A DNA stretch of 64,000 nt. Source: Eledone cirrhosa. Lineage: Eukaryota. Below the pieces are notes generated by a model. That model was not told where the DNA came from. It was given only the letters and a program-made list of their open reading frames with translations, and did no database searches. The number at the start of each line of letters is the position of its first letter. The first letter of the stretch is position 1. Made by a program: the position numbers and the translations under genes. This document shows, piece after piece, positions 7,291 through 9,976 of this stretch. Location of the stretch: assembly GCA_964016885.1 (NCBI GenBank), contig OZ024741.1, positions 96,782,001-96,846,000 of the forward strand, read 5' to 3'.

Positions 7291-7390
7291 AATATAGACA
7301 TAGAATATTCGAAAATATTCTGTATGTTTATAATAAACATTTTGAAGACCTAATCGCTATAGAATAGAATACGTCACGTATTACAATTAG

Positions 7391-7479
7391 ATTCTCGATA
7401 AAAGCAAGGGAAGTAATCTACGCGTTTCATTCTTATTAGAAATCTTCAGGACTACATATCCAGTGCTTTTATCGAGAAT
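7391..7479 (-). ncRNA. Type I hammerhead ribozyme with extended helix I (representative; cores also at 7723, 8033, 8343, 8546, 9697 on -)
   Basis: Minus strand GTAGTC-CTGAAGA-T-TTCT-AATA-AGAA-T-GAAAC-GC-GTA-GATTAC (7413-7455), enclosed by the 16-bp inverted repeat ATTCTCGATAAAAGCA (7391-7406) / TGCTTTTATCGAGAAT (7464-7479). Confidence 0.85.
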
Positions 7480-9045
7480 GACACAGCTAGAGACTTATAG
7501 AATACTTAGCTGTGTACAGGAACTGGTTTGAAAGAGCGGTTGCCGGTCCGGCAGAAATTAGAAATTGGAATAAATGCTCTGAAATAGCGATATATATGTG
7601 AATATAGACATAGAATATTCGAAAATATACTGTATGTTTATAATAAACATTTTGAAGACCTAATCGCTATAGAATAGAATACGTCACGTATTACAATTAG
7701 ATTCTCGATAAAAGCAAGGGAAGTAATCTACGCGTTTCATTCTTATTAGAAATCTTCAGGACTACATATCCAGTGCTTTTATCGAGAATGACACAGCTAG
7801 AGACTTATAGAATAATTAGCTGTGTACAGGAACTGGTTTGAAAGAGCGGTTGCCGGTCCGGCAGAAATTAGAAATTGGAATAAATGCTCTGAAATAGCGA
7901 TATATATGTGAATATAGACATAGAATATTCGAAAATATTCTGTATGTTTATAATAAACATTTTGAAGACCTAATCGCTATAGAATAGAATACGTCACGTA
8001 TTACAATTAGATTCTCGATAAAAGCAAGGGAAGTAATCTACGCGTTTCATTCTTATTAGAAATCTTCAGGACTACATATCCAGTGCTTTTATCGAGAATG
8101 ACACAGCTAGAGACTTATAGAATACTTAGCTGTGTACAGGAACTGGTTTGAAAGAGCGGTTGCCGGTCCGGCAGAAATTAGAAATTGGAATAAATGCTCT
8201 GAAATAGCGATATATATGTGAATATAGACATAGAATATTCGAAAATATTCTGTATGTTTATAATAAACATTTTGAAGACCTAATCGCTATAGAATAGAAT
8301 ACGTCACGTATTACAATTAGATTCTCGATAAAAGCAAGGGAAGTAATCTACGCGTTTCATTCTTATTAGAAATCTTCAGGACTACATATCCAGTGCTTTT
8401 ATCGAGAATGACACAGCTATGTGAATATAGACATAGAATATTCGAAAATATTCTGTATGTTTATAATAAACATTTTGAAGACCTAATCGCTATAGAATAG
8501 AATACGTCACGTATTACAATTAGATTTTCGATAAAAGCAAGGGAAGTAATCTACGCGTTTCATTCTTATTAGAAATCTTCAGGACTACATATCCAGTGCT
8601 TTTATCGAGAATGACACAGCTAGAGACTTATAGAATACTTAGCTGTGTACAGGAACTGGTTTGAAAGAGCGGTTGCCGGTCCGGCAGAAATTAGAAATTG
8701 GAATAAATGCTCTGAAATAGCGATATATATGTGAATATAGACATAGAATATTCGAAAATATTCTGTATGTTTATAATAAACATTTTGAAGACCTAATCGC
8801 TATAGAGTAATACGTGACGTATTCTATTCTATAGCGATTAGGTCTTCAAAATGTTTATTATAAACATACAGAATATTTTCGAATATTCTATGTCTATATT
8901 CACATATATATCGCTATTTCAGAGCATTTATTCCAATTTCTAATTTCTGCCGGACCGGCAACCGCTCTTTCAAACCAGTTCCTGTACACAGCTAAGTATT
9001 CTATAAGTCTCTAGCTGTGTCATTCTCGATAAAAGCACTGGATAT

Positions 9046-9088
9046 GTAGTCCTGAAGATTTCTAATAAGAATGAAACGCGTAGATTAC
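9046..9088 (+). ncRNA. Type I hammerhead ribozyme core in inverted arm (second copy 9356-9398)
   Basis: GTAGTCCTGAAGATTTCTAATAAGAATGAAACGCGTAGATTAC read directly on +. Confidence 0.85.
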
Positions 9089-9976
9089 TTCCCTTGCTTT
9101 TATCGAGAATCTAATTGTAATACGTGACGTATTCTATTCTATAGCGATTAGGTCTTCAAAATGTTTATTATAAACATACAGAATATTTTCGAATATTCTA
9201 TGTCTATATTCACATATATATCGCTATTTCAGAGCATTTATTCCAATTTCTAATTTCTGCCGGACCGGCAACCGCTCTTTCAAACCAGTTCCTGTACACA
9301 GCTAAGTATTCTATAAGTCTCTAGCTGTGTCATTCTCGATAAAAGCACTGGATATGTAGTCCTGAAGATTTCTAATAAGAATGAAACGCGTAGATTACTT
9401 CCCTTGCTTTTATCGAGAATCTAATTGTAATACGTGACGTATTCTATTCTATAGCGATTAGGTCTTCAAAATGTTTATTATAAACATACAGAATATTTTC
9501 GAATATTCTATGTCTATATTCACATATATATCGCTATTTCAGAGCATTTATTCCAATTTCTATATATATATATATATATAGACATAGAATATTCGAAAAT
9601 ATTCTGTATGTTTATAATAAACATTTTGAAGACCTAATCGCTATAGAATAGAATACGTCACGTATTACAATTAGATTCTCGATAAAAGCAAGGGAAGTAA
9701 CCTACGCGTTTCATTCTTATTAGAAATCTTCAGGATTACATATCCAGTGCTTTTATCTAATTGTAATACATGACGTATTCTATTCTATAGCGATTAGGTC
9801 TTCAAAATGTTTATTATAAACATACAGAATATTTTCGAATATTCTATGTCTATCTTCACATATATATCGCTTTTTCAGAGCATTTAATCCAATTTCTAAT
9901 ATATATATATATATATATATATATATATATATATATATATATATATATACATATATATAAAAAAAACGATAAAAGT

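Follow-up and report, generated by a model that had tools for sequence, protein, structure and literature searches.

Inverted multi-unit arrays of a 310-nt hammerhead retrozyme in Eledone cirrhosa carry a Penelope-type insertion footprint and were probably copied from small RNA circles

The window analysed here is a 64,000-nt stretch of the Eledone cirrhosa genome (contig OZ024741.1, positions 96,782,001 to 96,846,000), and between about 7,290 and 9,900 it holds tandem 310-bp units with hammerhead motifs. Tandem Repeats Finder gave a period of 310 at 7280-8419 and 8807-9562, and unit copies within the window arrays were 99-100% identical. The array consists of two separate, adjacent insertions, A and B, which belong to different subfamilies. 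Unit positions (M) are numbered from the predicted ribozyme cut, M1 being window position 9083. The parts of the array and their flanks, one tail of which is of the type found in Penelope-like elements (PLEs), are as follows.

7250-7289: (AT)n target tract to the left of insertion A, following (AC)n at 7142-7250
7290-8419, minus strand: outer block of the left arm of insertion A, 3.6 units, from the short end at M130 to M240
8418-8806, minus strand: inner block of the left arm of insertion A, 1.25 units, M134 to M56
8807-9562, plus strand: right arm of insertion A, 2.44 units, M35 to M170
9532-9562, plus strand: PLE-type tail of insertion A, M140-170, at this arm end only
9563-9575: (AT)n tract separating insertions A and B
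9576-9757, minus strand: left arm of insertion B, from the short end at about M125-127 to M256
9755-9900, plus strand: right arm of insertion B, from M27 to the tail end at M172
9901-9959: (AT)n target tract to the right of insertion B

Insertion A spans 7290-9562. Its minus arm of 4.9 units contains one internal jump, from M240 to M134, where the outer and inner blocks meet with a 2-nt overlap; the jump lands on the start site of the short end and may reflect re-initiation. The inversion centre is blunt (8806|8807). Insertion B spans 9576-9900 with a 3-nt overlap at its inversion centre, and its subfamily, defined by four linked changes (2G/126C/159A/277A), is present at six other loci. Target duplications were not resolvable for the window insertions, whose flanks are pure (AT)n, and no tRNA was found in the window.

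Other repeats lie elsewhere in the window. A different 472-bp tandem unit with a hammerhead per copy, retrozyme-like in appearance, occurs at 35168-36697 (plus) and at 56321 (minus), with hammerhead cores at 35197, 35889, and 36361; single hammerhead-core motifs occur at 27914 and 61818 (both plus). Broken LINE-type frames were found at 41502-42209 (plus; RT) and 51725-54509 (minus; AP-endonuclease plus RT), and a 199-bp tandem repeat of 2.8 copies with 79% matches at 46357-46902.

The ribozyme features of the array, with the reference monomer, are listed next.

7413-7455, minus strand: type I hammerhead
7723-7765, minus strand: type I hammerhead
8033-8075, minus strand: type I hammerhead
8343-8385, minus strand: type I hammerhead
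8546-8588, minus strand: type I hammerhead
9022-9110, plus strand: 16-bp extension of helix I (9022-9037 with 9095-9110), which encloses the ribozyme and covaries with a sister family
9046-9088, plus strand: type I hammerhead, predicted cleavage after 9082
9083-9392, plus strand: reference 310-nt monomer, from predicted cut site to predicted cut site
9356-9398, plus strand: type I hammerhead, predicted cleavage after 9392
9697-9739, minus strand: type I hammerhead of insertion B, helix I GUAAUC/GGUUAC

All eight motifs are complete and of type I, six on the minus and two on the plus strand, and lie in the near-identical 310-bp units exactly where the first-pass annotation had placed them; consecutive units of this short tandem repeat thus each carry a type I hammerhead. 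That annotation's account of helix I (GUAGUC/GAUUAC), the core (CUGAAGA...GAAAC), the ACGCGU palindrome, and the GUA site (after 9082) was borne out, and the 16-bp extension of helix I proved real. The C3-G8 pair, three helices, and a UH site are all present in the conserved core. Seven of the eight motifs read alike, the exception being 9697-9739. Here both strands of helix I have indeed changed with pairing kept, but the changes are one-sided and affect different pairs (U-A to U.G and G.U to A-U) and do not form a compensatory pair. Two further hairpins proposed for the monomer, AATACGT/ACGTATT and TGCCGG/CCGGCA, hold only in shortened form, because as written they leave a 1-nt loop and only 6 and 5 pairs are possible.

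With helices I, II, and III of 6, 4, and 2 bp, the last closed by the palindromic loop, the ribozyme is of the canonical metazoan size rather than the minimal PLE form (PMC4209133), and it carries the 16-bp extension besides. It resembles the PLE hammerheads of that report in its short palindromic helix III, which implies dimeric cleavage, and, in the sister family described below, in a U3-A8 core. For a stretch with two ribozymes the lowest-energy fold predicted was the dimeric hammerhead, with helix III formed by both ACGCGU palindromes. In having a U.U at the base of helix II, the ribozyme resembles the axolotl HHR_Amex2, which is reported to cleave better as a dimer (PMC7229834; 10.64898/2026.07.22.740005). 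The Rfam comparison proposed earlier gave no match at the gathering score, the best hammerhead being HH9 with 17.1 bits (versus 52) and E = 1.1; Rfam miRNA matches were artefacts of inverted repeats. The monomer is strongly self-paired, with z = -4.56 for the linear fold (0 of 100 shuffles equally stable) and z = -4.67 for the circular one, and its GC content is about 0.33. The unit had been described as lacking an ORF, and its longest stop-to-stop frame, even in a trimer, is 59 aa; the RT plus GIY-YIG endonuclease ORF of an autonomous EN+ PLE is absent from the unit and from the mapped arrays.

Pattern searches of the genome, following an earlier proposal to look for the monomer genome-wide, gave 2,544 matches to the exact 33-nt core against 0 for the reversed control, and 9,492 matches to CUGAUGA-core variants, again with 0 for reversed controls. 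Together these matches set a lower bound of 12,036 copies for the family, which amounts to about 3.7 Mb or about 0.12% of the genome. The copies are spread over dispersed arrays numbering about 1,700, a figure estimated from the first 100 places listed per search, which fall in 15 and 14 loci. Most arrays were 98-100% identical to the reference unit, and the family is young. We mapped the first-listed loci on one contig and later added loci picked for particular variants.

All 40 independent two-armed insertions with both ends readable (24 and 16 loci from two mapping sets) had their arms back to back, with one short end at about M126-139 and one tail end at about M156-172 (mode 165); tails were 26-35 nt long at the modal ends. 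This tally leaves out a duplicate block (L040), two arrays that end in N (L308 and L191), a second array that is cut off (L045), two that were not mapped through (L204 and L262), and 13 untallied family matches from a search for other ACGCGU hammerheads. Ten further insertions had one arm, seven ending at the short site and three at the tail site. Almost all insertion ends fell within (AT)n or similar AT-rich repeats. The exception, L199, is in non-microsatellite DNA and has a target duplication of up to 15 bp, and duplications of about 30-40 bp were seen in mixed repeats at L192 and L195. Copy number, the two fixed ends, the choice of target, and these three duplications were all read directly from the genome. 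No LTRs were found in the mapped loci, and among the 26 matches from the search for other ACGCGU hammerheads no insertion had its end at the cleavage site. Immediately 3' of the short end lies a motif that, from its conservation, is a candidate recognition site for a PLE protein.

8912-8926, plus strand: M140-154, which of all blocks is the most conserved between the 310-bp family and the 320-bp sister family

The sister family (L079, L214-L263) is an older retrozyme family of 320 bp whose ends and architecture are the same; its cores are of the C3-G8 and U3-A8 types, and its palindromic helix III is longer. It aligns to the whole 310-bp unit, with 77% mean column identity in the joint alignment, and is non-coding over the same length. 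Across the aligned rows 96% of cells pair. Both partners differ in 21 of the 43 pairs, C3-G8 to U3-A8 among them, although the 12 rows form three related groups and hold few independent covariation events. Helices I-III covary with the sister family. Variants that had been inherited kept the predicted pairs at 8 of 12 paired positions, whereas of the 29 paired or core positions hit by private variants 4 kept them (p = 0.0016). Within the ribozyme region the inherited changes were tolerated in 8 of 8 cases and private changes broke a pair or the core in 10 of 10. The list of private variants omits end-junction changes at M128-133, indels, and the subfamily changes of insertion B. Conservation of the fold, like the unit itself and its eight motifs, was read from the sequences.

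The first-pass annotation had framed the array as a satellite and had raised the possibility that its inversion was a chimera. Long arrays at few loci and without defined ends, as in a classical satellite, are not what we found: the units lie in about 1,700 dispersed insertions with two fixed ends, and back-to-back arms are the normal form of a PLE-type insertion. An ordinary satellite that expanded and was homogenised as DNA, or an artefact of assembly or amplification, would suit the long homogeneous tandem runs and the local duplication seen in some old sister arrays (L247). We nevertheless consider it the least credible explanation, given the dispersed loci, the target duplications, the haplotype common to inverted arms (below), and the covarying RNA fold. 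The old sister arrays moreover have not been kept homogeneous: in two of them each unit has 11-32 substitutions, and most of the variants are private (117 of 195 and 148 of 190), which makes later homogenisation unlikely.

A two-armed insertion with a single tail is, by its sequence, the tail-plus-inversion footprint of PLEs. Their insertions are reported to combine a 5'-truncated copy in inverted orientation with a tail of 30-40 bp, which is often confined to a single end (PMC8557442), and purified PLE protein is reported to cut and extend both strands of AT-rich DNA in vitro and to start at two internal RNA sites that bracket the tail (PMC11167929). Because short and tail ends in 40 of 40 insertions match the PLE tail, the inverted copy, and the two RT start sites, we favor PLE-type mobilisation of the 310-bp family. 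The likeness to EN+ PLEs extends to AT-rich or microsatellite targets and a hammerhead near the 3' end (PMC8557442, PMC3846280, PMC11167929); unlike them, the family has no ORF, its arms often contain many units, and its ribozyme is canonical rather than minimal.

Coding PLEs of this genome have the same back-to-back form. We scored 104 near-identical copies (98-100% identity) of a young Neptune-type family encoding RT and GIY-YIG domains, and the coding family of L036, one copy of which lies inside the window, inserts in the same form. At window 3270-4505 a two-armed, 5'-truncated insertion of a young coding PLE lies in (AT)n; its GIY-YIG C-terminus is 98% identical to the 1167-aa ORF of L036, and it has its own hammerhead-like motif and a tail of about 60 nt on the right arm. 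Small back-to-back inverted pairs resembling PLE 3' ends occur at 6620-6810, with a hammerhead core per arm, and at 6870-7065, which matches the end of the coding PLE at L211. A decayed Neptune-type endonuclease fragment at 39137-40170 (plus) belongs to an old family with 14,151 candidates, a separate copy of whose hammerhead lies at 51473 (minus). Outside the window, L114 (1290-5978) holds a young 4,689-bp Neptune-type PLE with two overlapping frames of 409 and 775 aa, the second of which recurs in many copies. The overlap contains, in the first frame, the heptamer U UUU UUA, which we take to be a slippery-site consensus, and the arrangement suggests a programmed -1 frameshift rather than damage. 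The 310-bp arrays themselves often occupy the (AT)n tract adjoining a coding PLE from a different family (L036, L125, L198, L200, and L203), which suggests nested reuse of the same targets.

Among the 1.48 Mb of loci examined, no coding PLE had the ends of the unit. The ends of the old Neptune family differ from it, the young Neptune family of L114 gave a best match of 76% over 42 nt (E = 0.04), and the unit ends were not found in the L036 family. A Penelope/Poseidon-like coding family, whose hammerhead class has 28,884 pattern matches, has ends unlike those of the unit, and its pLTR hammerhead has 25 of 28 nt in common with the 310-bp ribozyme core. A search with the end motif, in which 310-bp context was mostly excluded, returned non-coding retrozyme copies at 30 of 30 loci and no coding element, and no coding element ending in this way came from the search with other ACGCGU hammerheads. 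Tails in the observed coding families were about 60 nt long, versus about 30 in the 310-bp family; this, together with the lack of a coding partner in 1.48 Mb, counts against the explanation that we prefer.

These results bear on the proposal that a coding PLE somewhere still carries the unit as its pLTR, joined to the ORF, and that the arrays are truncated by-products. Such an origin would account for a PLE footprint at every locus and for the 25 of 28 nt shared with the Penelope/Poseidon-like pLTR hammerhead, and Xenopus retrozymes are reported to be related to pLTRs (10.64898/2026.07.22.740005). Among the matches listed, however, the unit sequence runs into an ORF at no mapped locus, and the 320-bp sister family is non-coding over its whole length, indicating that the lineage has long been protein-free. 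We regard this proposal as very improbable. The sharp choice drawn earlier between a retrozyme and a pLTR multimer loses its edge, as the unit appears to be PLE-mobilised either way.

The structure of the arms informs the nature of the RNA that was copied. Both arms exceeded one unit in 16 of 24 loci, and the longer arm was the short-end arm in 10 and the tail-end arm in 14, so that neither arm is a fold-back copy of the other; arm lengths were weakly correlated (rho 0.46, p = 0.024). A haplotype was common to both arms in 24 of 24 loci, among 15 haplotypes, and rare variants were usually fixed in all units of both arms, for example, in 17/17 units at L037, 17/17 at L251, 9/9 at L042, and 8/8 at L047. 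This array-wide fixation is a direct observation, and a new variant reaches all units only through a single-unit step. The predicted ligation site was crossed 218 times with no scar or change, which argues against jumps between the ends of linear monomers and is equally compatible with a circle or an uncut multimer.

If a linear multimer had been copied from one start unit, unit-level variants should appear mirrored in both arms. Setting aside two near-fixed A276G rows, we found mirroring for 0 of 14 variants in one set and 1 of 17 in the other, that is, for 1 of 31 non-fixed variants over about 119 overlapping units. The one case, at L297, places a variant at the same lap (lap 1) in both arms, and L310 shows periodic unit variants in a 2-3-unit pattern. 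Both point to oligomeric templates or later local duplication, and a minority of insertions likely came from oligomeric templates.

The main competing explanation keeps the same PLE-mobilised element but gives it as template an uncut linear multimer from a homogeneous array, leaving the ribozyme and the circle outside the insertion cycle. L297 and L310 fit it, as does the scar-free junction between M310 and M1, which it predicts equally well. It also has no need of the ribozyme. In vitro, inactivation of the ribozyme is reported to have left RNA insertion by a PLE undiminished (PMC11167929), and of nine Xenopus retrozyme dimers only one is reported to have cleaved (10.64898/2026.07.22.740005). 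At L246 (2885-3510) a ribozyme-less 163-bp deletion derivative of the sister family forms four tandem units with a tail end. All three count against a strict need for the ribozyme. In opposition stand the near absence of mirrored variants, the all-or-none A>G changes described below, which in arrays of up to 20 units would require repeated single-unit bottlenecks, and the tolerance of inherited but not private changes in the ribozyme. On balance we judge an uncut template to be unlikely, if clearly less so than the other two alternatives, and favor the monomeric circle. Sequencing runs X4-X6 each yielded a 340-nt contig (310 + 30), the length expected from either a circle or a perfect tandem; X4 and X5 also carry an unrelated PLE end. 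These runs are given no weight as evidence of expression, and there was no RNA run among the runs listed as carrying the family.

Two positions of the unit recur as A or G among copies.

9048, plus strand: A276 (5'-UAG, helix I), A here and G in 628 genomic copies; candidate A-to-I site
9102, plus strand: A20 (5'-UAU, extension stem), A here and G in 658 genomic copies; candidate A-to-I site

By genome-wide pattern search each G variant makes up about 5% of copies. The single control for this comparison, C22T, keeps a wobble and was found in 11 copies, all of them single. Its energy cost is 2.1 kcal/mol, compared with 0.0 and 0.4 for the two A>G changes, so that selection may account for some of the difference. 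Among 13 rare array-fixed events in the first-listed loci, seven were A>G in the sense strand, six of these at A20 or A276. A276G occurred on three haplotype backgrounds and A20G on five, as is expected if edited monomer circles were copied repeatedly; G at these sites can also be inherited from the source array. Both adenosines are 5'-UAN in stems, the context that human ADARs are reported to prefer, and A276 has the 3' wobble said there to enhance editing (PMC11994451). At 21 of 25 loci every unit of the array carried the change, with as many as 20/20 units. The remaining four loci were mixed, which we count against our explanation. In them three arms switch once, all three starting with A and changing to G in the later laps; of the other arms, one is G except for a single A lap and one has a lone G. 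No title or abstract found in a literature search on ADAR or A-to-I editing with retrozymes or PLEs dealt with editing marks in retrozyme arrays.

From the back-to-back arms and the recurrent A-to-G marks it appears likely, as far as sequence can tell, that a PLE-type enzyme copied one small RNA circle round and round. The explanation that we prefer, to which we assign a probability of about three in four, is that the 310-bp unit is a non-coding hammerhead non-LTR retrozyme with a Penelope-type tail, written into (AT)n by a borrowed PLE RT/endonuclease that copied a monomeric circle. The initial suggestion of a retrozyme whose young array was copied from multimeric or circular RNA gains support from the genome-wide insertion anatomy. 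We propose that arrays would be transcribed as multimers, in which neighboring hammerheads, by the predicted fold, would pair through the ACGCGU palindrome and cut after GUA to release 310-nt monomers. A host ligase would close these into circles, and a few percent of the circles may be A-to-I edited at stem adenosines. A PLE protein would then cut both DNA strands and prime one cDNA per end, at two start sites roughly 30 nt apart (about M130-139 and about M165); each cDNA would run for 0.2-27 laps, and the two would be joined, mostly by overlaps of 0-4 nt. We lean only slightly toward a more specific reading, in which each array is a time-ordered record of one ribozyme-made circle, with A-to-I edits of that molecule fixed in the DNA and, in a few arrays, caught in mid-run.

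The family has the sequence features that define a non-LTR retrozyme, with cleavage and circles being predicted. Published non-LTR retrozymes are described as tandem units of 170-400 nt with a type I hammerhead, low GC, and long target duplications, in genomes where PLEs co-exist (PMC7229834; 10.64898/2026.07.22.740005). The 310-bp unit is alike in size, hammerhead, low GC, self-pairing, and target duplications: it is non-coding, has a GC content below 50%, a self-paired monomer, and, at the three loci noted, a target duplication of more than 4 bp, and it co-exists with coding PLEs. Both papers propose PLE mobilisation and copying of circles; in their available text, two-armed inversion, a tail, fixed start sites, and editing marks are not described. 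They detected RNAs of their elements, whereas the 310-bp family is known here from DNA alone. The 35 genomes of Li et al. include no mollusc by their text (10.64898/2026.07.22.740005), and no title or abstract found in literature searches on cephalopod retrozymes or Octopus Penelope hammerheads describes the 310-bp family, although supplements may hold related elements. Chlamys MRC1 (PMC8557442) is also reported as a protein-free PLE passenger with multicopy head-to-tail insertions; Chlamys non-autonomous elements differ in resembling their autonomous partner at the 3' end and in belonging to a clade without canonical hammerheads.

The element is an ordinary genomic parasite. In the two retrozyme papers the movement of these animal elements is proposed rather than shown, with PLEs as the likely engine and circles as the likely template (PMC7229834; 10.64898/2026.07.22.740005), and this young family supplies insertion-level evidence for both. 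It names two start sites and the bases likely to be edited, and its 310-nt substrate could be tested directly in vitro with an intact PLE protein of the same genome. If the arrays are time-ordered records of single circles, they would constitute direct genomic proof of rolling-circle target-primed reverse transcription, and RNA editing would feed heritable variation into a mobile element.
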